Of a stretch of DNA of 47,949 nt, positions 3,175 through 16,360 are shown one piece after another. Source of the stretch: a virus. Lineage: Duplodnaviria > Caudoviricetes. Below the pieces are notes generated by a model that saw only the letters and a program-made list of their open reading frames with translations, was not told where the DNA came from and searched no databases. A program made the translations under genes and the position numbers. The stretch lies in the IMG/VR virus record IMGVR_UViG_3300043432_000149, positions 1 to 47,949 of that record. One strand, given 5' to 3'. Position 1 is the stretch's first letter. The number at the start of each line of letters is the position of its first letter.

Positions 3175-3392
3175 CGCGCGGCGCTCGCTTTCGGTAGGCT
3201 GCCCAGGTTGGTGGTGGCGTGGCGCTTGTAATTGAGTGCGATCCGTCCGGCGCGCGTGGCGCCATCAATCGGATCGGGTTCTGGCGGTGGTGGCAGTCGG
3301 GGCGGCATCGGGACACCTGCGAACGGCAGGCCGCCGTCCAGGGCTCCCATGAGGCCGAGAAGGGCGGCAAGCTGGAGAGTGGAGCGCCTCAT
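3171..3392 (-). CDS. 73-aa hypothetical protein with hydrophobic N-terminus and Pro-rich middle
   Basis: MRRSTLQLAALLGLMG...; overlap-coupled to both neighbours. Confidence 0.5.
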   Translation of the reverse strand: MRRSTLQLAALLGLMGALDGGLPFAGVPMPPRLPPPPEPDPIDGATRAGRIALNYKRHATTNLGSLPKASAAR

Positions 3393-3961
3393 GTTCCGGC
3401 GCTCGCTTTCTGGGCCGGGAACAGGGCCTCGGCCTGCCTGATTGCTTCTTGTGGATCCACGCCTTGCCATACCAAGGCCTCGGCTTCGCGGCGGCGCTGA
3501 AGGCCCAGAAGCACTTCCCCCCCAGCCTTGCGCCATTTGCGGAGCTGATCGGGGATGCTCTCGAAGTCGCGTGCGCAGAGGTCGCCAGCCAGTCCGGTGG
3601 ATGCCTTGAAGGGCGCTCCGCCGAGGTTGAAGGCCAGGTCGATGAGTGCGCCGATCTGGGGCGCGGTGAGTTGAGATGTGAGATTTGCGCCGAGCTTGCC
3701 GTAGACGACGGAGGAAGCCGCCCGTATGTCGGCATCCAGCCAGGCGTCGGCTTGATCCTGCGTGATCGAGCCATCGGATGCCACCTTGTCATCCACGCGC
3801 AAGAGATGGCCGGTCCCGCAAGTCGGATTCCCCTTGAAGGAACCTCCGGGCGGGGCGGGCTTCCCGGTGGCATCGTCATAGAGATACAGGCGCGTGCCTT
3901 CGTAGTGTCGGATCAGGATGAGGGCGATTTCTCGCGCGGTTGGTGTGGCGGTTTGGCTCAT
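3389..3961 (-). CDS. GH24 (T4/P21-type) lysozyme
   Basis: IRHYEG..LYLYDD...TCGTGH, ALIDLAFNLG, GLQRRREAE motifs; GGAG RBS. Confidence 0.9.
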   Translation of the reverse strand: MSQTATPTAREIALILIRHYEGTRLYLYDDATGKPAPPGGSFKGNPTCGTGHLLRVDDKVASDGSITQDQADAWLDADIRAASSVVYGKLGANLTSQLTAPQIGALIDLAFNLGGAPFKASTGLAGDLCARDFESIPDQLRKWRKAGGEVLLGLQRRREAEALVWQGVDPQEAIRQAEALFPAQKASAGT

Positions 3962-4191
3962 GTCGTTTCTCCAAAGAGCGGAAGCTGTTCTTCGGTAATG
4001 GCTGGCCTGGCGTCGGCCTCCGCCTGGCAGTGTCCGCACAGGGGCGCGGCTGCGATGGCGGCGGGCGTGGTGGCGGCCTGTGGCCTGAAAAGCCCCGCGT
4101 TGCAGCCGGGAGCGGGGCAATCCCATGTGTAGATCGGCTCCATGCCGGGGAAGCTAATTTCCCGGCGGATGCCGGATGGGTCAAGGCGCAT
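3958..4191 (-). CDS. small Cys-rich hypothetical protein
   Basis: CPAPGC...CGHC; overlap-coupled. Confidence 0.55.
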   Translation of the reverse strand: MRLDPSGIRREISFPGMEPIYTWDCPAPGCNAGLFRPQAATTPAAIAAAPLCGHCQAEADARPAITEEQLPLFGETT

Positions 4192-8226: not shown

Positions 8227-8469
8227 ATGACCAGAACTGAGTTGCATGAACTGATCGATCGAATCCCTGAAAACCTGCTGGCTGCCGTCGAGTTGGCCGC
8301 ACGAGATGCCATGATCGCGGCTATCCCTGAGGAGGAAGAAGAGGTCAGTCCCGAGGAGGCTGCGGCCATTGACGAAGCGCTGGAGGAACTGAAGAACGGC
8401 GGACGGGTCTATACTACCGAGGAGCTGAGGAGGGAGCTGGGACTTGAGCCAATCCGTTCAATGGTCTGA
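8227..8469 (+). CDS. putative antitoxin of a RelE-type module
   Basis: Acidic 80-aa protein ending ...GRVYTTEELRRELGL, upstream of relE; GGAGG RBS; TTGACG-N17-GAGAAT upstream. Confidence 0.75.
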   Translation: MTRTELHELIDRIPENLLAAVELAARDAMIAAIPEEEEEVSPEEAAAIDEALEELKNGGRVYTTEELRRELGLEPIRSMV

Positions 8470-8644
8470 TAGATCAAAGCGCGACATGAAGCCGCTGCCT
8501 GCGTCGGCGCAGAATAAGATCACCTTGGCGGTCTACCGCTTCGCTGAAACGGAACGAGGCGACATCCTCAAGCTCAAGGGCCGCGAGGACCAATACCGCC
8601 TCCGCGTGGGCGACTACCGCGAGGGCGGGGCGGGTGCGGACTGA
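8444..8644 (+). pseudogene. C-terminally truncated RelE/ParE-family toxin
   Basis: GDILKLKG...YRLRVGDYR, then the sequence diverges and stops 7 codons later, losing the usual final beta-strands. Confidence 0.75.
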
Positions 8645-8648
8645 AGCG

Positions 8649-9080
8649 CTACAGGCGGAATCGACGACCCTGGATGACGGCGGGCATCAAATGGTCAAAA
8701 TCTGCATCGGTGGTGATCAGGTGCGCGCCAGTCGCCTTTGTGGCGGCGGCTATCCATAGATCGTTCTTGCCCATAACGCGGCTTCCGGCAGGGTGGGCAT
8801 GGGAGACAGCATCAATCTCAACGTAGGCATCAATCACCGCTCGACTGTTGATGTCGACCATTACCAGTGACGACAACGCGGCATCAAGGGCGGCTGCCTT
8901 CGGGCCTCCCCAGCTATTCCTTCGGGCCAACGATCTGATTTCCCCTTCCGTGACGACGCATGCCATGGGGCGGCGCGCGCCCTTGTTGGCGTCTATGAAG
9001 CTGGCTATTTCTTGCCCGACGGCGCCACGACGAGCCACCATCATCACGATCGCGGAAGTGTCCAGGAGGAGCCCGCTCAT
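8649..9080 (-). CDS. PIN-domain (VapC-like) ribonuclease
   Basis: LLLDTS, VTEGEI, MGKNDLWIAA, LITTDADF acidic active-site motifs. Confidence 0.9.
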   Translation of the reverse strand: MSGLLLDTSAIVMMVARRGAVGQEIASFIDANKGARRPMACVVTEGEIRSLARRNSWGGPKAAALDAALSSLVMVDINSRAVIDAYVEIDAVSHAHPAGSRVMGKNDLWIAAATKATGAHLITTDADFDHLMPAVIQGRRFRL

Positions 9081-10027
9081 CCGTTCAGTTCCCTGAGCGC
9101 GTCCAGCAGTTCCTCTTCGGTCTCCTCGCCCGGCCAATCACCCCACGGCGGGCCTCCGAGCGTCGCTTGCGGAAGGGGCGGCGCGGGGGCGATCTGTCGC
9201 CTCGATCTGGGCGGGACGGCAAACACTGCGTCTCCAGGCCCGGATTCTTCTTCTATGGATTCGGCATGTATTGCCCAGAGCTTTCCGGATCGCCTAAATA
9301 GGCCAAGACCTTCAGCAACTACGCTGTGGCCCCAAAGCCGGCGGAGCCTTTCTGGGTCGTGACGCCCTGTCCACGCCTGCACGATGTCGCCGTTCTGGAG
9401 CCGGAGGACAACATGAGAACTCGACGCCGAGATGGTATCAAGGATCGCCAGCGTGCGAACCGGCTCAGGGTCGGGCGTCTCTTGAGACAGGCGCAAGAGC
9501 CGCTCCCTGTCCTGTCCCCTGAGCAGGAGGGGCTTCGTTCTCGCCCCAATCCTGCCGAAGTCCAGGGATTCAAGGCCAGAATTTGCGAATGTCGCAAGGT
9601 TTGCGCACGTCTCTAGCAGGGGCTTGTCGGCCAAAACGAGATCGTCATTCCCGGAAAGCGCAGCCTCCAGGATGTCTACGAATAGCTCGATCGTTGTGGC
9701 GGATCCGAGAGCGGGAGGCGCCGCGCTCTCGAATAAACCCGGATCGAGCATGTCGGCAATCGGGCCTTGCCGAACCTCATCCAGCGTGAATGCCTCGACA
9801 TAAAGGGTTTGTGGGGAATTTCTTGACAACCCGACGATGTCGATGCCTGCGGCCCTGGTAAGCCAACCGGGTCTCGTTCCGGATTTCGTGCTCTGCCCCT
9901 CTGCCAAAAACCGGAGTGCCTGCTCTCCGCCAGCAATGAGGGACTGAATTAGCACCAGGAGCGCGCCGCCAGGGAGGCGGACGCCGGCGCTGTCGGGTCC
10001 GTTGATGATGATCGGGTGCTGTTTCAT
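9077..10027 (-). CDS. 316-aa PIN-partner protein of unknown function
   Basis: GGAGG RBS; ATGA overlap with the PIN gene; acidic C-terminal tail WGDWPGEETEEELLDAL. Confidence 0.75.
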   Translation of the reverse strand: MKQHPIIINGPDSAGVRLPGGALLVLIQSLIAGGEQALRFLAEGQSTKSGTRPGWLTRAAGIDIVGLSRNSPQTLYVEAFTLDEVRQGPIADMLDPGLFESAAPPALGSATTIELFVDILEAALSGNDDLVLADKPLLETCANLATFANSGLESLDFGRIGARTKPLLLRGQDRERLLRLSQETPDPEPVRTLAILDTISASSSHVVLRLQNGDIVQAWTGRHDPERLRRLWGHSVVAEGLGLFRRSGKLWAIHAESIEEESGPGDAVFAVPPRSRRQIAPAPPLPQATLGGPPWGDWPGEETEEELLDALRELNG

Positions 10028-10129: not shown

Positions 10130-10750
10130 CTACTTCTGCGCCGTGGCCTTGAAGTAGATGACAAACGGAGCAACCACCCTGAACTCCGCTCCTGCATAGA
10201 TCCGATTGCCTACCACGAGAACCTGAACCCCGGCCGCAGACTGAAGCCTGCCAAGTTCAAGGCGACGGTCAACAACGGCCGCAACCTCGTCTCCAATTTT
10301 GGCCGGGAAGCTCGGAGTGATGAGAACCTGTCCGCCGATGCGGTACTCGCCGAAATCCTCATCGAGCCTTATCCAGCGGGCCATTGGGTCATTAGACAAA
10401 TTGGGCGACTCATCGAGAGACAGGACAGCGATCTCTTGCATTAGTTTGTCTGGCTGGGCATCCACCGGGAACCTCCCTGACCGGATTACAGGTACCTTTG
10501 GCCGTGCATCTTTCGTTTGTAAGTTGCCACCAAAAAGCCAAGATACATCTACGCCCAAGGCACTGCAAACAGGGGCAAGTTTTCGCACGTCCATCCAGGT
10601 TTCACCGCGCACGAACTTCGATAGGTGGTTGTAATCCGTTTCCGCGTCGGCAGCAATCTGGCGCCAAGAACGCGGGTTCCCGCCCCTCCCCTTTGTGTCC
10701 TTGTCTCGGGCTTCGGAGATGCGCTCTCGAACTATTTTTTCAATGTCCAT
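10130..10750 (-). CDS. cI: CI-like immunity repressor (HTH plus degenerate S24-like beta domain)
   Basis: SWRQIAADAETDYNHLSKFVRGE...ALGVDVSWLFGG; divergent from a cro-like gene. Confidence 0.8.
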   Translation of the reverse strand: MDIEKIVRERISEARDKDTKGRGGNPRSWRQIAADAETDYNHLSKFVRGETWMDVRKLAPVCSALGVDVSWLFGGNLQTKDARPKVPVIRSGRFPVDAQPDKLMQEIAVLSLDESPNLSNDPMARWIRLDEDFGEYRIGGQVLITPSFPAKIGDEVAAVVDRRLELGRLQSAAGVQVLVVGNRIYAGAEFRVVAPFVIYFKATAQK

Positions 10751-10784
10751 GCCATGAGCGTATTCATCGACATTTCCAGAATCA

Positions 10785-10849
10785 ATAGGGATTGAGAGAG
10801 CTATACTCATCGGTTCCTCTTGACAATCAGGATTGTCAATCCTTATTCT
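10785..10849 (+). promoter_or_regulatory. rightward promoter PR (TTGACA-N18-TATTCT) with operators at 10785-10805 (half-site match) and 10826-10846
   Basis: ATCAGGATTGTCAATCCTTAT palindrome lies between the hexamers; same family as the PL operators. Confidence 0.8.
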
Positions 10850-10855
10850 TGGTGC

Positions 10856-11095
10856 ATGGACATCAAGAGCGAAATCAAACGGAGCAGGGAATCTCTGGGG
10901 CTGACCCGGAACGCGCTTTCTGTGCGACTGGGCCTGGACAACACCTACATCCGCAAAGTCGAGGCCGGAGAGATCGATCCCGCGCTGGCGACGCTTCGCA
11001 AGCTCGGGCGCTTCTTTCGCTCCCAGGGCAAGCCGTTCAGCGACCAGCTCGAGCAACTCTTGGGGCTCGCCCCCGCCCTGGAGCCGACCGGATGA
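10856..11095 (+). CDS. cro: Cro-like XRE regulator
   Basis: IKRSRESLGLTRNALSVRLGLDNTYIRKVEAG; first gene after PR. Confidence 0.8.
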   Translation: MDIKSEIKRSRESLGLTRNALSVRLGLDNTYIRKVEAGEIDPALATLRKLGRFFRSQGKPFSDQLEQLLGLAPALEPTG

Positions 11096-11665: not shown

Positions 11666-12232
11666 ATGCACAAAAACGCCTCAGTTCATGCGCATAAAGG
11701 ACCGTCCGCATCCGAGATCGAGCAGGCCAGAGGGCTCGCCGATGCGGTGGATGCTGCATCGAAGCGCGCCATGCACAAGTATTTCGGCGACAACGGCGCA
11801 GTCCTCAAAGAGGCGCTCGGCGAGGCGCTCGACACCAGCAAGGGGAGCATCAGCCGCCAGACCCAGATCCGCGACCTGCCTGTGCAGTACCGGATACTCG
11901 GCGCGCTCAAAGTGCTCTGCCCGGAGCTGTGGCGCGCGATCCTGGACGCCTCTGGCGATGAGATGGGCATCGAGTGGCGGCCGAAGTCCGCCGTGCAGCC
12001 CTCGCTCGAAGGCGTGCTGGAGGCCATCACCGCCAAACAGATCGCGGCGTCCGAATCCGCTGCCATCGAGTACGCCGCCGCGAAGGACAACCGCATCGAG
12101 CCCATCGAGCTGGACTGGTGCGAGGAGGCATGGCGACACGAGGACCACCTTCGTGAGGCGATGCGCTCGAAGTTGCGGGCGATGGCCCAGGCCGGCGGCG
12201 CGCCGATCCAGCTTCGGAGGGCACAGCCGTGA
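11666..12232 (+). CDS. CII-like phage regulatory protein
   Basis: Position after cro; HTH-like segment; AAAKDNRIEPIE resembles the DGRI motif of the phage CII family. Confidence 0.55.
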   Translation: MHKNASVHAHKGPSASEIEQARGLADAVDAASKRAMHKYFGDNGAVLKEALGEALDTSKGSISRQTQIRDLPVQYRILGALKVLCPELWRAILDASGDEMGIEWRPKSAVQPSLEGVLEAITAKQIAASESAAIEYAAAKDNRIEPIELDWCEEAWRHEDHLREAMRSKLRAMAQAGGAPIQLRRAQP

Positions 12233-12584: not shown

Positions 12585-12907
12585 CCGCCAACTTCACTGC
12601 AGGCTGCCTTTACGGCATTCCGTGCCGATTCTCTGCCCCCGGAGGCTATCCATTTCCAGGCTCCAGGCTGGCCACTCTCATCTCCTTGACTCTGGATCAG
12701 TCCGCAATCCAGCCAGCGACAGAGCCCCTTTTCGCTGAGGCCAACGGCTCCGGAGCGACCAACGCTTCTATACCTACCGACTCCGGAGCCGGCAACCTCA
12801 ACCGGGCCGAGGCCGGCCAGATAGCTGAGGCGGAATCCGCCGGGCGCGCGATTTATAGTGGCTCGCCGTCCGGCGGCCGACCTCAACCGGGGGGGGCTCG
12901 CCGATGA
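12581..12907 (+). CDS. 108-aa ORF overlying structured RNA hairpins
   Basis: GGAGG RBS and ATGA overlaps at both ends; protein has no recognisable motif. Confidence 0.45.
   Translation: MTANFTAGCLYGIPCRFSAPGGYPFPGSRLATLISLTLDQSAIQPATEPLFAEANGSGATNASIPTDSGAGNLNRAEAGQIAEAESAGRAIYSGSPSGGRPQPGGARR
12734..12891 (+). repeat. two tandem hairpin units, GCTGAGGC...ACCTCAACCGGG (12734-12806 and 12824-12891)
   Basis: Shared flanks with different internal stems: CGGCTCCGGAG/CTCCGGAGCCG and CCGCCGGG/TCCGGCGG. Confidence 0.6.
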
Positions 12908-13632
12908 ACCGCCGGGAGCTAGGTAGGGCGCTCAAGCGCGATCGGGAAGCCGCCGGCCTGCTGCCGAGGCAGATGGCAACCGCCGCGCGGATGTCGCTCG
13001 GTGGTCTGCTCGACTGTGAGTCGGGGCAAGGCGAGGAAGCGCACCTCATCAAGTACGCCGAGGCTCTGGCGAAGATCACGCGCCGGGAGCAGCGGGCGCT
13101 CAAAAAAGCTGGTGCCGTATCTCAGATGGGAGAGGGGGGCTCAACATGCAAGCCGCGAGGCCAGCAGGAGCCGGAGGACGCCGGTTCGAGTCCGGCCGGC
13201 ACCGTCAAAATCCACGGAGGCGTAGCTCAGATGGTAGAGCATCGGCCTAACACAGCCGAGCGCGCCGGTTCGGATCCGGCCGCCTCTGGGGTAGCGCGGG
13301 ATAGCTCAAGGGTGGAGCAGCAGGTCCATAGCCTGCCGGCCGCTGGTTCGAGTCCAGCTCCCGCCATCGAGCCAGCGGAGACGCCCGTTCAAATCGGGCC
13401 GCCGGTGCAGGTCCAACCCCTGCCCGGCGTAGGCCAGCAGGTTGCAGACACCGCCCTGGCTCCAATCCAATCTGAGATCACGGAGCAGCTCAGGCCGACA
13501 AAGACGCGGCGGGTTCAGGGTGCCCGCCGCGCCTCCGAGATCTCGCGTTTTTCCGTGGCGCGGGAGCCGCGCGTGCTCGGGCCGGTCCGGGCGGATTATG
13601 TGCCGCTCTCGGCCAGGGAGCTCGAGGCATGA
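12904..13632 (+). CDS. XRE-like HTH protein whose C-terminal part is encoded by tandem tRNA-like elements
   Basis: LGRALKRDREAAGLLPRQMATAARMS...ESG HTH, then GGVAQMVEH and GSSPA peptides, which are translated D- and T-arms. Confidence 0.6.
   Translation: MNRRELGRALKRDREAAGLLPRQMATAARMSLGGLLDCESGQGEEAHLIKYAEALAKITRREQRALKKAGAVSQMGEGGSTCKPRGQQEPEDAGSSPAGTVKIHGGVAQMVEHRPNTAERAGSDPAASGVARDSSRVEQQVHSLPAAGSSPAPAIEPAETPVQIGPPVQVQPLPGVGQQVADTALAPIQSEITEQLRPTKTRRVQGARRASEISRFSVAREPRVLGPVRADYVPLSARELEA
13111..13204 (+). ncRNA. tRNA-like element 1: full cloverleaf, anticodon loop replaced by a 25-nt insert capped by a GCGA tetraloop
   Basis: Acceptor GGTGCCG/CGGCACC; D-arm TCTC-AGATGGGA-GAGG; stem GGCTC/GAGCC; T-arm GCCGG-TTCGAGT-CCGGC. 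Confidence 0.75.
13216..13288 (+). tRNA. tRNA-like element 2 with an 8-nt anticodon loop (CTAACACA); no encoded CCA
   Basis: Acceptor GGAGGCG/CGCCTCT; D-arm GCTC-AGATGGTA-GAGC; stem TCGGC/GCCGA; T-arm GCCGG-TTCGGAT-CCGGC. Confidence 0.7.
13295..13366 (+). tRNA. tRNA-like element 3, Met(CAT)/initiator-like, loop TC-CAT-AG; no encoded CCA
   Basis: Acceptor CGCGGGA/TCCCGCC with a 1:72 mismatch; D stem GCTC/GAGC; stem GCAGG/CCTGC; T-arm GCTGG-TTCGAGT-CCAGC; discriminator A. Confidence 0.7.
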
Positions 13633-13811
13633 GCGTTTCAATCCCCTCTCGCGGGGCATGCAGCCGCGACAACCCCAACCGGGCGCCAGGCGCCCAAAAG
13701 CAGAGCGGCGGGAATCCGCCAAGACCGCCCGCCGCTCAGAATGGTGCCGAATGCGAGGAAAATATAACACTGCCCGTACTGCCGAGCAAGAGCCGGGGTG
13801 GCGCGTGCTGA
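13629..13811 (+). CDS. 60-aa bridging ORF overlying the CRISPR-like repeat and its antisense promoter
   Basis: ATGA overlap upstream; stop overlaps the start of the primase gene; begins VSIPSRG, which is the translated repeat. Confidence 0.35.
   Translation: MSVSIPSRGACSRDNPNRAPGAQKQSGGNPPRPPAAQNGAECEENITLPVLPSKSRGGAC
13635..13670 (-). CRISPR. solitary CRISPR-like repeat, GTCGCGGCTGCATGCCCCGCGAGAGGGGATTGAAAC (36 nt); not an array
   Basis: GTC start, CCCC-GCGAGA-GGGG hairpin directly followed by the 8-nt ATTGAAAC handle; single copy; no cas genes seen. Confidence 0.7.
13761..13789 (-). promoter_or_regulatory. antisense sigma70-type promoter TTGCTC-N17-TATATT with extended -10 TG, pointing at the solitary repeat
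   Basis: -35 at 13789-13784, -10 at 13766-13761; predicted start near 13754, about 85 nt before the repeat. Confidence 0.6.
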
Positions 13812-16081
13812 CGGAACAGGATGTTCTCGGACCCCTGCAAGCCGTGAAGGGTGCGGGGGATTGCAAGTGGACGGCGAAGTGCCCAGCGCACGAGGACGAC
13901 CGCAGGAGCCTGTCCATCTGCCTGGACGGCGGGAAGTGGCTCTTTAAGTGCTTCGCCGGCTGCTCGTTCTCCGAGATCATCGGCCGCATCGGGATTTCCG
14001 CCGCCGAGTGTTTCCCCGAAGACGAGAGGCGGGGGCGGGAAAAGAAGCCAATCCACAAGGCTGCAGCCAAGAAGGCCCCGATCCAAGAGGTCAAGAAGGC
14101 GGCGAAGGCGCCCCAGAAGCTGGGGAAGTTCGTGTGCGCCTATGACTACACGGACGAGGCCGGCGCGCTGCTGTACCAGAACTGCCGGTTCGAGGATCCG
14201 AAGGACTTCCGCCAGCGGCGCCCCGATGGCCAAGGTGGGTGGATCACCCCTTGGGGCCTCGGTGATGTGCGGCGCGTGATCTATCGCCTGCCAGAGGTCC
14301 GGCTCGCCATGAGCCTCGGCGCTCCGATCTGGATCACGGAAGGCGAAAAGGACGCTGATCGGCTGCAGAGCCTCGGGCTGACCGCCACCACGAGCGGGGG
14401 AGCCACGACCTGGCGCCCGGAGTTTGCCGACCTGCTGCAGGGGGCTGACGTGGTCATCGTGCCGGACCAGGACGTATCGGGCCGGATGTACCGGGACGCC
14501 GTCGGCAGCAGCCTGCAGGGCAGGGCAAAGCGAGTGCGGGTCGTGGAATTGCCGGTCGAGTTCCGGCAGAAGCACGGCCTGGACGTGTCTGATTGGCTCG
14601 ACGGAGGAAAGCGACTCGCGGATCTCCTCGAGCTCGAAAAGCAGGCGGCCGAGTGGTCTCCTGAAAAAAAAACGACTGGCGCCGACGCCATCCTGGCCCG
14701 CGGCGGAAAGCTCATGGAGGCGCCCTTGACCGATTACGGCAACGCTGAGCGACTCGCAGAGCTGGCCATGGATGACGACGGCGAGCCCCTCGTGCGGTGG
14801 TGCGAGGCGCGCGGGCAGTGGCTCGCGTGGGACGGAAAAGCCTGGCGATGGGACGAGACCGGGTCGGTCGAATCCCTGGCAAAGCGCACAGTGCGGCGCT
14901 TGCGAGAGGTCGCCGAGGCGATGAACCGCGATGGTATCGCGGACTTCGCTCTAAAAAGCGAAGCTCTCCCGCGGTTGCGGGCGATGATCGAGCTCATGCG
15001 GACAGAGCCGGGGGTTCCCGTCTCGATGGACCAGCTCGACGCCGACGACTGGACGCTGAATTGCCGCAACGGCGTGGTGGACCTGAGGAGCGGGAAGCTG
15101 TTCCCTCACTCCAAAGATCGGCTTCTGACCAAGATGGCGGAGGCCTCGCTCGTTCCTGGTGCATCTCGGACTCGGTGGATCGAGTTCTTGGGCTACATTA
15201 TGGGCGGCGACCAAAGCCGGGTGGACCTGCTGCAGCGCGGGATCGGCGCCAGTGCAAGCGGCGCGCCGTGGCAATACCTGATCTTCCTGTACGGGAGCGG
15301 GGCCAACGGCAAGAGCGTGTTCCTGGAGGTGGTCTCCAGGATTCTGGCGAGCTACGCCGGAGAAGCTGCGCAGGGGCTCCTGCTGCAGAAGAAGAACGAG
15401 GCTCACCCCACCGAGGTTGCTGACCTCATGGGGAAGAGGTTCGTGACCTCGGAAGAGATGGACCAGTCGAGCGTTCTCGACGAAGGGCGCGTCAAGCGGC
15501 TGACCAGTGGCCGGCCGATCAAGGCGCGCTTCATGCGGGAAGACCTCTTCGAGTTTCGGCCGACCCACAAGCTGTGGTTCGCCGTCAACCACAAACCGCG
15601 CGTTCGCGGCCAGGATGAGGGCATCTGGCGTCGCATCAAGCTGGTTCCCTTCGAGGTGCAGATCCCGCCGGAGAAGCGCCGCGACTTCGAGGAAGTGGTC
15701 CAGGGGTTCCTGCAGGAGCGGGACGGGATCTTTGCCTGGATCGTGGAGGGCTGCCTCAGGTGGCAGAAGGAAGGGCTGGGGGCCTCTGAAGCGGTAGATG
15801 CCGCGCACGAGCAGTACCGGACCAGCATGGACGATTTCGGTCAGTTCCTGGAGGACTGCGTTGCGATCGCTCCGGACGCTACGGCGGACTTCTGCAGGGT
15901 GCGCAGCTCGGACCTCTATGGAGCCTATGCGAAGTGGTGCGAGGAAGGCGGAGTCCGGAAGCCCATGTCGCAGACTGCCTTCTCGTTGCGCATGACGGAG
16001 CGCGGCTTCCAGAGCGAGAAGAAGGGGTGCGTGTGGTGGACAGGGATCACCCTGCAATCCAAGCGGGAGGATGCGCCATGA
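13805..16081 (+). CDS. primase-helicase: zinc-binding domain, TOPRIM, and P4/D5-family SF3 helicase
   Basis: CPAHED...KCFAGC; ITEGEKDAD; PDQD; TDYGNAER; Walker A GSGANGKS; GIWRR; likely GTG start at 13805. Confidence 0.93.
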   Translation: MLTEQDVLGPLQAVKGAGDCKWTAKCPAHEDDRRSLSICLDGGKWLFKCFAGCSFSEIIGRIGISAAECFPEDERRGREKKPIHKAAAKKAPIQEVKKAAKAPQKLGKFVCAYDYTDEAGALLYQNCRFEDPKDFRQRRPDGQGGWITPWGLGDVRRVIYRLPEVRLAMSLGAPIWITEGEKDADRLQSLGLTATTSGGATTWRPEFADLLQGADVVIVPDQDVSGRMYRDAVGSSLQGRAKRVRVVELPVEFRQKHGLDVSDWLDGGKRLADLLELEKQAAEWSPEKKTTGADAILARGGKLMEAPLTDYGNAERLAELAMDDDGEPLVRWCEARGQWLAWDGKAWRWDETGSVESLAKRTVRRLREVAEAMNRDGIADFALKSEALPRLRAMIELMRTEPGVPVSMDQLDADDWTLNCRNGVVDLRSGKLFPHSKDRLLTKMAEASLVPGASRTRWIEFLGYIMGGDQSRVDLLQRGIGASASGAPWQYLIFLYGSGANGKSVFLEVVSRILASYAGEAAQGLLLQKKNEAHPTEVADLMGKRFVTSEEMDQSSVLDEGRVKRLTSGRPIKARFMREDLFEFRPTHKLWFAVNHKPRVRGQDEGIWRRIKLVPFEVQIPPEKRRDFEEVVQGFLQERDGIFAWIVEGCLRWQKEGLGASEAVDAAHEQYRTSMDDFGQFLEDCVAIAPDATADFCRVRSSDLYGAYAKWCEEGGVRKPMSQTAFSLRMTERGFQSEKKGCVWWTGITLQSKREDAP

Positions 16082-16089
16082 TCTGCGCA

Positions 16090-16360
16090 AACCTTCCAAC
16101 CCTCCAAAACCCTCCACGGAAAAACCTCAATGTTTGCAACAGCATTGGAGGGTTGGAAGGTTTGGAGGGTTGTCTGCATCACCGCATATGCGCGCGTGAT
16201 GTCGTTGTGTGTGGGACGGTCAAAATGTTTTGCCGTTCACCCAGACAACCCTCCAACCCTCCAAGGGGGTCAATTTTCGTTGAAAAACAGCAACAGAATC
16301 ATGGGGTTATAAATCTGGAGGGTTTAGCTCAAACCCTCCAAAACCCTCCAAAACCCTCCA
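16090..16360. repeat. iteron cluster, probable replication origin: 12 copies of AACC(C/T)TCCA (8 forward, 4 inverted)
   Basis: Forward at 16090, 16098, 16108, 16247, 16255, 16332, 16342, 16352; reverse at 16146, 16154, 16163, 16316; AT-richer than flanks; directly after the primase gene. Confidence 0.8.

Follow-up and report, generated by a model that had tools for sequence, protein, structure and literature searches.

The temperate-type phage recorded as IMGVR_UViG_3300043432_000149, whose whole record of 47,949 bases was analyzed here as a single stretch (the window), was found to carry at 12734-13789 in its early operon a helix-turn-helix (HTH) gene, ORF-B, whose open reading frame (ORF) holds three tRNA-shaped cloverleaves (t1, t2 and t3), followed on the opposite strand by a solitary CRISPR repeat (Table 1). 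We read this tentatively as a variable early-operon stretch in which an in-frame tRNA-decoy cassette and an independent candidate type III RNA anti-CRISPR (Racr) may represent separately acquired RNA decoys against host defenses, a reading that we consider quite possible, though short of probable. The shapes, the open frame, the shorter homologs and the family of the repeat are the parts of it that were demonstrated directly. An original prediction, made from the letters alone, had proposed that all elements of the interval form one RNA-level system under an Aca-like HTH; its RNA-mimic reading of the individual parts was upheld, with tRNA shapes that break decoding rules and a type III-family repeat downstream of a plausible promoter, whereas the single system was not.

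ARAGORN returned three tRNA calls in the 48-kb window, all within 13111-13366, and none in 10 triplet-shuffled genomes; with the Rfam tRNA model, t2 (53.8 bits) and t3 (52.3 bits) both exceeded the gathering score, and the three cloverleaves of the original prediction were thereby borne out. Their stems were nearly intact (61 of 63 pairs in t1-t3): t1 has one C-A pair and t3 has the unpaired C1:C72. The loops were compared with those of 27 host tRNAs from fetched loci, all of which had Y32, U33 and a 7-nt anticodon loop, with R37 and A58 in 26 of the 27. Assignment as decoding tRNA genes, judged by the anticodon loop (7 nt, Y32-U33, R37), was rejected on account of A32/A33 in t1, the 8-nt loop of t2, which has no 3-nt anticodon, and C33 in t3. 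Moreover, CCA was encoded in 22 of the 27 host tRNAs versus none of the three cloverleaves, and the best of the 27 agreed with t2 or t3 at 55-58 positions only. Because the stems were kept while U33 is missing from both t1 and t3, and t2 combines an 8-nt loop with the absence of A58, we infer that the cloverleaves were selected for tRNA shape, not for decoding. In addition, t1 and t2 have common T stems and most of the D arm alike, which suggests that they arose by duplication. A contig covering 11000-15000 (X1 run) showed zero differences and could itself be the source of the record. Another study (X3) supplied a contig of 151 nt that was identical across 13101-13251, so that t1 and the t1/t2 junction are not an assembly artefact. 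The further minihelices that had been predicted downstream of t3 were also supported, the segment 13369-13462 folding at z -3.6. The D and anticodon arms of t1 contain a Shine-Dalgarno-like run and an ATG; the putative 34-codon ORF nested at 13146-13250 has the strongest Shine-Dalgarno-like pairing measured in the interval, and GGGGGGCTC upstream of it also precedes the ORF-B start.

The HTH of ORF-B, which had been called XRE-like, was matched by Pfam HTH_31 (E=1e-4, under the gathering score). An AlphaFold model built from two sequences placed helices at residues 3-71 as a block of predicted local distance difference test (pLDDT) 80-90 and was confident only for residues 1-71 and the last few, residues 73-210 scoring below 50; the top Foldseek rows were XRE/HipB proteins, none at E<=0.001. 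The HTH is of the XRE type, the signal being weak but consistent. A homolog search over 4577 candidates, restricted to 133-424 aa, identified one cluster of three Logan proteins (P0001-P0003), which keep both termini (47% identity in the HTH, 79% in the tail) and are 89 residues shorter, with about 40 residues in place of the roughly 130-residue middle of ORF-B. Since these middles are too short to contain three cloverleaves, the cassette is accessory. The exact ORF-B sequence was absent from the protein collection searched. The ORF-B frame stays open through the cassette for 120 codons (5.9% of 5000 shuffles did likewise), past which it resumes the tail of the homologs in register. The statement that nothing but the HTH has a recognizable fold held for ORF-A and ORF-C, which belong to no family, but not for ORF-B, whose C-terminus is conserved as well.

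In this tail, 16 of the 17 distinct substitutions were one-base changes. Within the predicted hairpin at 13473-13545, six of the seven changes (one of them a deleted codon) fell at unpaired positions (binomial P=0.024, minimal codon changes assumed), three on single unpaired bases within or at the edge of the stem. As the changes avoid paired positions, the ORF-B tail is likely constrained as RNA. Caution is called for in that P0002 and P0001 differ in the tail alone, so that tail identity has also been raised by recent exchange.

The core pattern of the solitary repeat was found at 65 loci in bacterial genomes, mostly arrays, and 300 shuffles gave no repeat-like match, which confirmed the CRISPR-like element noticed at first. 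The closest array repeat, from a Myxococcota metagenome-assembled genome, agreed at 33 of 36 positions with gaps (blastn: 86.8% over 38 columns, 41.0 bits), and both the hairpin and the 8-nt tag were kept in the phage. In a cas scan of 11 loci of the repeat family (36 ORFs chosen by the analyst), RAMP and Csm6-HEPN were found at four, Cas1 at four, and a reverse transcriptase (RT) with Cas_APE2256 at one; Cas10 was not seen within the flanks of these 11 loci. From the RAMP/Csm6-HEPN and RT/Cas_APE2256 genes beside arrays, we infer that the family is of type III. The phage has no second repeat, its next best ungapped match reaching 22 of 36, and a degenerate local candidate was rejected because it ranked only 559 of 6388; no cas gene was matched among 30 phage ORFs scanned, a subset of those in the genome. 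The sequence preceding the repeat was dismissed as an array leader, bearing by eye no likeness to 34 array leaders. Lying antisense to the early operon, the repeat has a guide that is fully complementary to the phage mRNA at ~13595-13634, and that mRNA bears an exact anti-tag; such is the geometry of any antisense solitary repeat and is no evidence of selection. No second-site target of the guide was found in the genome, the best having 7 mismatches in 25 nt.

An antisense promoter at 13761-13789, which had been asserted at the outset, is plausible only: its extended -10 element (TG-n-TATATT) is one of two in the genome, while its -35 box matches at three of six positions and the consensus promoter scan did not list it. 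The closest primase homolog, P0009 (82% identity), has an N-terminal extension that keeps Y5-N6 and E12-Q13 at equal spacing with four of the five intervening residues changed, and the codons of these pairs overlie the -10 and -35 boxes; this pattern would be expected if the promoter is conserved, if the primase truly starts at 13751, or if both hold. As for the proposed coupling of the ORFs by overlaps, ATGA overlaps do join ORF-A to ORF-B and ORF-B to ORF-C, but a primase start at ATG 13751 would break the simple chain. The two hairpins predicted beyond the repeat (13681-13695 and 13703-13737) were both present.

Table 1. Coordinates of the elements discussed, in positions of the window
Feature	Coordinates	Strand	Remarks
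Cloverleaf t1	13111..13204	+	CAT in loop AACATGC (A32, A33); long variable region; no CCA
Cloverleaf t2	13216..13288	+	8-nt anticodon loop CTAACACA; G replaces A58; no CCA
Cloverleaf t3	13295..13366	+	CAT anticodon; C33; unpaired C1:C72 (initiator-like); no CCA
Two T-arm-like minihelices (13383-13399, 13400-13429)	13383..13429	+	Within closing stem 13369-13462
Solitary 36-nt CRISPR repeat, type III-associated family	13635..13670	-	Ends in hairpin and ATTGAAAC
ORF-B, 242 aa	12904..13632	+	XRE-type HTH (residues 1-71); disordered tRNA-encoded middle; conserved tail of ~53 aa
Long hairpin (13473-13545), then T5 (13548-13552)	13473..13552	+	z -4.15; likely RNA-level conservation in ORF-B homologs
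Segment complementary to 13107-13131 (5' part of t1)	13466..13490	+	Predicted alternative long-range helix; not significant in trans
Putative nested ORF, 34 codons	13146..13250	+	From t1 anticodon loop to TAA in t2 anticodon loop
Probable antisense promoter	13761..13789	-	-35 TTGCTC (13789-13784), 17 nt, TG and -10 TATATT (13766-13761)
Terminator-like 15-bp hairpin and weak U-tract	13696..13737 (hairpin 13703-13737)	-	Between antisense promoter and repeat
Small 6-bp hairpin	13681..13695		Fold
ORF-A, 108 aa	12581..12907	+	No family; no codon-position GC signature; ATGA overlap with ORF-B
Hairpin unit 1	12734..12806	+	GCTGAGGC ... ACCTCAACCGGG; z -4.64
Hairpin unit 2	12824..12891	+	End motifs as in unit 1; z -3.13
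Degenerate third copy of unit end motifs	13620..13683	+	GCTCGAGGC ... ACCCCAACCGGG; flanks CRISPR repeat
ORF-C (P0006), 60 aa	13629..13811	+	No family; no codon-position GC signature; ATGA overlap with ORF-B
Primase-helicase (Toprim and D5_N, phrog_6088)	13751..16081	+	Start at ATG 13751 or GTG 13805
Upstream anchor, 188-aa regulator in cII position	11666..12232	+	CII/YdaT-like as a lead only

A mosaic make-up of the interval emerged from sequence comparison. The gene most closely related to the cII-like one (89% identity) is followed, past 12574, by a different gene where ORF-A sits, with no match of at least 80% over the remaining 236 nt. Neither of the two other viral copies of the repeat family (L126 and L127) had a tRNA call or a homolog of the early proteins within 4 kb, and no one transcript can contain both the tRNAs and the repeat, which lie on the plus and the minus strand, respectively. 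These observations, together with the homologs that lack the cassette, point indirectly to a mosaic rather than one system. Elsewhere, one scan of viral contigs led to six distant primase loci, all without tRNAs; 11 motif matches in viral contigs proved unrelated and three in metagenome contigs were due to chance. GenBank phages gave DNA matches at the tRNA level only and no protein matches, plasmids gave no relative, and 401 genomes of the phylum of genome G001 gave no match to ORF-B; a distant primase was present in 38 of the latter, with a tRNA call at one of 30 fetched loci (flanks of ~1.5 kb, a weak test).

In the mechanism proposed for the two decoys, host RNase P and 3' nucleases would excise the cloverleaves from the early transcript, as their tRNA shape implies, and the freed non-decoding tRNA shapes, two of them exposing the Met anticodon CAU, would engage or divert nucleases that target tRNA, while the open frame would let translation reach the ATGA-coupled downstream genes. 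On the other strand, the OOP-like antisense promoter at the primase start would give a repeat-bearing RNA upon read-through of the weak terminator, and Cas6 would cut this RNA into a CRISPR RNA (crRNA) look-alike that titrates host type III subunits in a Racr-like manner. In type III systems, Cas6 cuts at the base of the hairpin to leave the 8-nt tag and host nucleases trim the 3' end, and hence one repeat would be enough for a guide. With the guide antisense to the phage's own mRNA and a perfect anti-tag, Cas10 would stay off; anti-tag RNA is described in the available part of 10.1101/369744 as being cleaved by Csm3 without Cas10 activation. Precedents for the two decoys are solitary repeats downstream of promoters, which, as far as the source extends here, are Racrs for I-C, I-E, I-F and V-A (PMC10651486), and phage tRNAs that evade nucleases through anticodon-loop changes (PMC10264068, in the portion available).

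Several results weigh against this reading. When the whole region was folded, t1 and t3 were predicted not to form (pair probability ~0) and the acceptor stem of t2 reached only ~0.5; since the cis fold disrupts t1 and t3, the cloverleaves would need co-transcriptional or post-cleavage folding. A decoy of anticodon nucleases might, moreover, be expected to keep a normal loop, which t1-t3 do not. The DNA of relatives, on which covariation of the cloverleaves would depend, was not found among viral and metagenome contigs, GenBank phages or plasmids. As to the repeat, the terminator-like hairpin separates it from the antisense promoter, so that it would be expressed only via read-through; its 41.0 bits lie at the edge of the SRUFinder cut-off of 41.1, although the scoring may differ; and none of 1246 spacers matched the phage over >18 nt, nor was a host identified thereby. 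An intergenic position is a criterion for solitary repeat units (SRUs), and the repeat lies inside a called ORF, a class treated as probable false positives in the available part of PMC10651486, though ORF-C has no coding signature. Finally, the sharing of end motifs between the repeat and both hairpins upstream hints at some dependence among the parts.

A somewhat unlikely alternative is a cis-regulatory switch for the replication gene in the manner of P1 C4, P4 CI and lambda OOP, in which tRNA-like RNAs processed by RNase P, together with alternative hairpins, would control termination or the decay of mRNA ahead of the primase. The interval does have the cII-like gene on one side and the replication gene on the other, the cassette is bordered by repeated end motifs, and the conserved hairpin is followed by T5, with the RFS residues invariant in all four proteins (ORF-B and its homologs). 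The 5' part of t1 is complementary to the 5' strand of this hairpin (duplex energy with 13466-13490 ranking 2 of 4784 windows, seven queries having been tried), and their pairing dominates the cis fold (pair probabilities 0.72-1.0) and is predicted to displace the hairpin. In trans, however, antisense action of t1-t3 was rejected, t1 gaining only -4.4 kcal/mol with 60 of 215 control windows equal, and the repeated motifs showed no stronger pairing with the T or D arms of the cassette than controls did (7-68 of 79 windows equaled them). In the available part of PMC5499578, C4 and CI are RNase P substrates, in favor of such a switch, but lack a T loop, whereas t1-t3 have full T arms, and no Rfam C4 match was obtained at E<=10; the available part of PMC3985674 adds that lambda pO makes a short antisense RNA opposite pR near the origin. 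Rfam hits to YrlA (28.2 versus 69 bits) and tmRNA (21.9 versus 47 bits) were sub-threshold, come from the tRNA arms and were discarded.

It appears quite unlikely that neither the cloverleaves nor the repeat has a present function, the former being remnants of a captured tRNA cluster and the latter a stray product of integration. The cassette is indeed missing from the homologs, solitary repeats of the family also occur in or against unrelated phage genes (L126, L025), and about 6% of shuffles give an open frame; neutral decay would nevertheless hit the stems, yet the pairs hold at 61 of 63 positions while the loops drifted, the repeat retains its hairpin and 8-nt tag, and nine of 11 segments tested over 12734-13760 fold at z <= -2.1 (the exceptions being t3, -1.4, and the repeat, -0.5) versus one of 28 control windows in the primase and structural genes. 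It is improbable, too, that t3, and perhaps t1, are working nuclease-resistant Met tRNAs that replace a cleaved host tRNA-Met/fMet and receive CCA from the host: the CAT anticodons, the unpaired C1:C72 with A73 and the 52.3 bits of t3, a PIN/VapC protein of the phage with a weak match to a tRNA(fMet)-specific VapC model (E=0.04) and the precedent in the available part of PMC10264068 argue for it, whereas in t3 position 33 is C, the A11-U24 pair is missing and just two of the three G-C pairs typical of initiators are present, t1 has A32 and A33, t2 has no 3-nt anticodon, and CCA is missing from all three. As for the one anti-defense system under an Aca-like HTH, its tight clustering, a motif with only three genome copies that ties the upstream hairpins to the repeat, and a palindrome, ATCTNAGAT, that has exactly two copies, one close to each end of the cassette, speak in its favor. 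This model is nevertheless very improbable, given the homologs of the HTH without the cassette, the divergence of the cII-like relative, the elements on opposite strands and their failure to occur together in L126 or L127; the promoter scan gave no promoter-like site ahead of ORF-A or of ORF-B, no Aca family was matched in Pfam, PHROGs, NCBIfam or PDB, and the sole palindrome pair lies inside ORF-B, away from any promoter, so that the Aca-like role was not sustained.

A bolder reading, decidedly improbable, would have the phage use two host RNA machines to switch its own replication operon, by Csm/Cmr-guided self-cleavage and by ribosome-gated tRNA mimics. The antisense type III repeat, loaded into host Csm/Cmr, would direct Cas7 to the phage early mRNA just upstream of the primase, and with the anti-tag silencing Cas10 the phage would sense and titrate type III immunity and throttle replication without triggering it. 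RNase P, for its part, would free the tRNA mimics only once ribosomes stop covering them, so that the decoys would be released when a tRNA-targeting defense halts translation.

Returning to the two proposed decoys, their likeness to known systems is partial. T5 tRNAs reportedly act against PARIS and retrons. The nuclease-evading phage tRNAs of PMC10264068 resemble the cassette, as far as the available text goes, in being phage-borne tRNA folds with altered anticodon loops, but they decode, whereas t1-t3 break U33 or loop size, have no CCA and are read through by a protein gene. The likeness to Racrs from SRUs, as described in the available part of PMC10651486, lies in one repeat, no cas match, no second repeat and a probable promoter within 250 bp upstream; in contrast, the phage repeat belongs to a type III family, while the function tests in that part cover only I-C, I-E, I-F and V-A. 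It also differs in sitting inside a called ORF antisense to the early operon, with a guide that complements the phage's own mRNA, in the intervening terminator-like hairpin and in the lack of an identified acr neighbor. Viral crlRNAs are said to borrow a repeat to exploit host Cas proteins as well. The viral CRISPR mini-arrays in the available part of PMC11656645 likewise borrow a repeat to use host Cas proteins, but the phage has no second-site guide match in its genome, and the mini-array assignment was rejected because two repeats around a spacer define that class and the phage has one. PMC13692257 was dropped as a comparison, the part available concerning type VI-B.

P4 CI sits upstream of a replication gene. 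P1/P7 C4 and P4 CI share with the phage, in the available parts of PMC8198154 and PMC5499578, structured RNAs nested in early-operon ORFs as RNase P-type substrates; C4 and CI lack the T loop, however, and the phage RNAs have no match to the C4 family model in Rfam, possess T arms and show complementarity to the flanking repeats no better than controls, and membership was rejected on these grounds. With lambda pO/OOP (PMC3985674, in the part available) the phage shares a promoter that points leftward from the replication gene start and would yield a short terminated antisense RNA, but read-through in the phage would enter the CRISPR repeat, and the target is not cII. In the literature searched, which was covered in part, no description was found of non-decoding cloverleaves nested in-frame in a phage regulator gene, nor of an antisense type III repeat acting on the phage's own mRNA, though the SRU tables of PMC10651486 may list the repeat.

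The two related hairpin units announced upstream were likewise recovered (z -4.6 and -3.1), each with 0 of 200 shuffles equally stable; both open with GCTGAGGC and close with ACCTCAACCGGG. The 12-nt motif ACC(T/C)CAACCGGG has three copies in the genome at <=1 mismatch (12795, 12880 and 13672), and the third, with a degenerate upstream motif at 13620, brackets the CRISPR repeat. That ORF-A and ORF-C are not under protein selection, as had been supposed, is supported by codon-position GC, which is flat in ORF-A (0.61/0.66/0.66) and ORF-C (0.62/0.66/0.67), unlike the primase (0.66/0.46/0.83). A GGCGG(G)AATCCGCC hairpin occurs twice (12829-12841 and 13707-13720) and its complement once in the ORF-B tail (13590-13597), and these permit alternative pairings.

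Other members of the repeat family were also observed. In an Acidobacteriota genome (L025:5990-6026), a solitary repeat with an array-type leader ahead of it passes directly into a Mu F-like phage head gene and may be either a prophage SRU or the result of ectopic integration; arrays of a near-identical repeat are present in L030. In a 106-kb virus (L126:4001-4025), a solitary repeat lies antisense inside an ORF with the geometry seen in the window, and the viral repeat with a degenerate upstream repeat end at L127:4001-4100, upstream of an ORF resembling by eye a small terminase, is a probable viral mini-array. Bacterial solitary copies were present at L012, L057, L062 and L071, with no second repeat within 6 kb or to the contig end.

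As to the setting, the phage has a repressor-like gene at 10130-10807 (minus strand), a cro-like HTH at 10820-11095, small ORFs, the Toprim/D5 primase-helicase, and terminase, portal and capsid genes; no integrase was recognized among the phage ORFs scanned. The interval had been placed between cII and the primase, and a 188-aa regulator does occupy the cII position, but the cII label is a lead only, the best template modeling (TM) score to a CII-family cluster in structure comparison being 0.49-0.57. A lysozyme gene (3389-4126, minus strand) sits in the leftward early region, and an accessory block left of the repressor (8227-10027) holds a RelB-like antitoxin with a short RelE-like ORF (RelE by eye), together with the PIN/VapC gene and its 316-aa partner of no recognized family. 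Right after the primase, at 16081-16360, clusters of AAACCCTCC-type direct and inverted repeats are probably the replication origin; the same repeats caused spurious miRNA matches in the Rfam-type scan.

Each part of the interval resembles a known kind; the combination, observed in one phage only, is genuine and out of the ordinary. As a rule, little is made of tRNA pseudogenes in phages, and features that overlap ORFs are often discarded by gene-calling and repeat-finding programs. Cloverleaves that appear to keep their shape in-frame while not decoding offer a compact test of a decoy versus a processing-signal role, and the repeat is a type III Racr candidate of a type outside those functionally tested in the available part of PMC10651486, whose antisense position predicts self-cleavage without Cas10 activation, an outcome that would be directly assayable.

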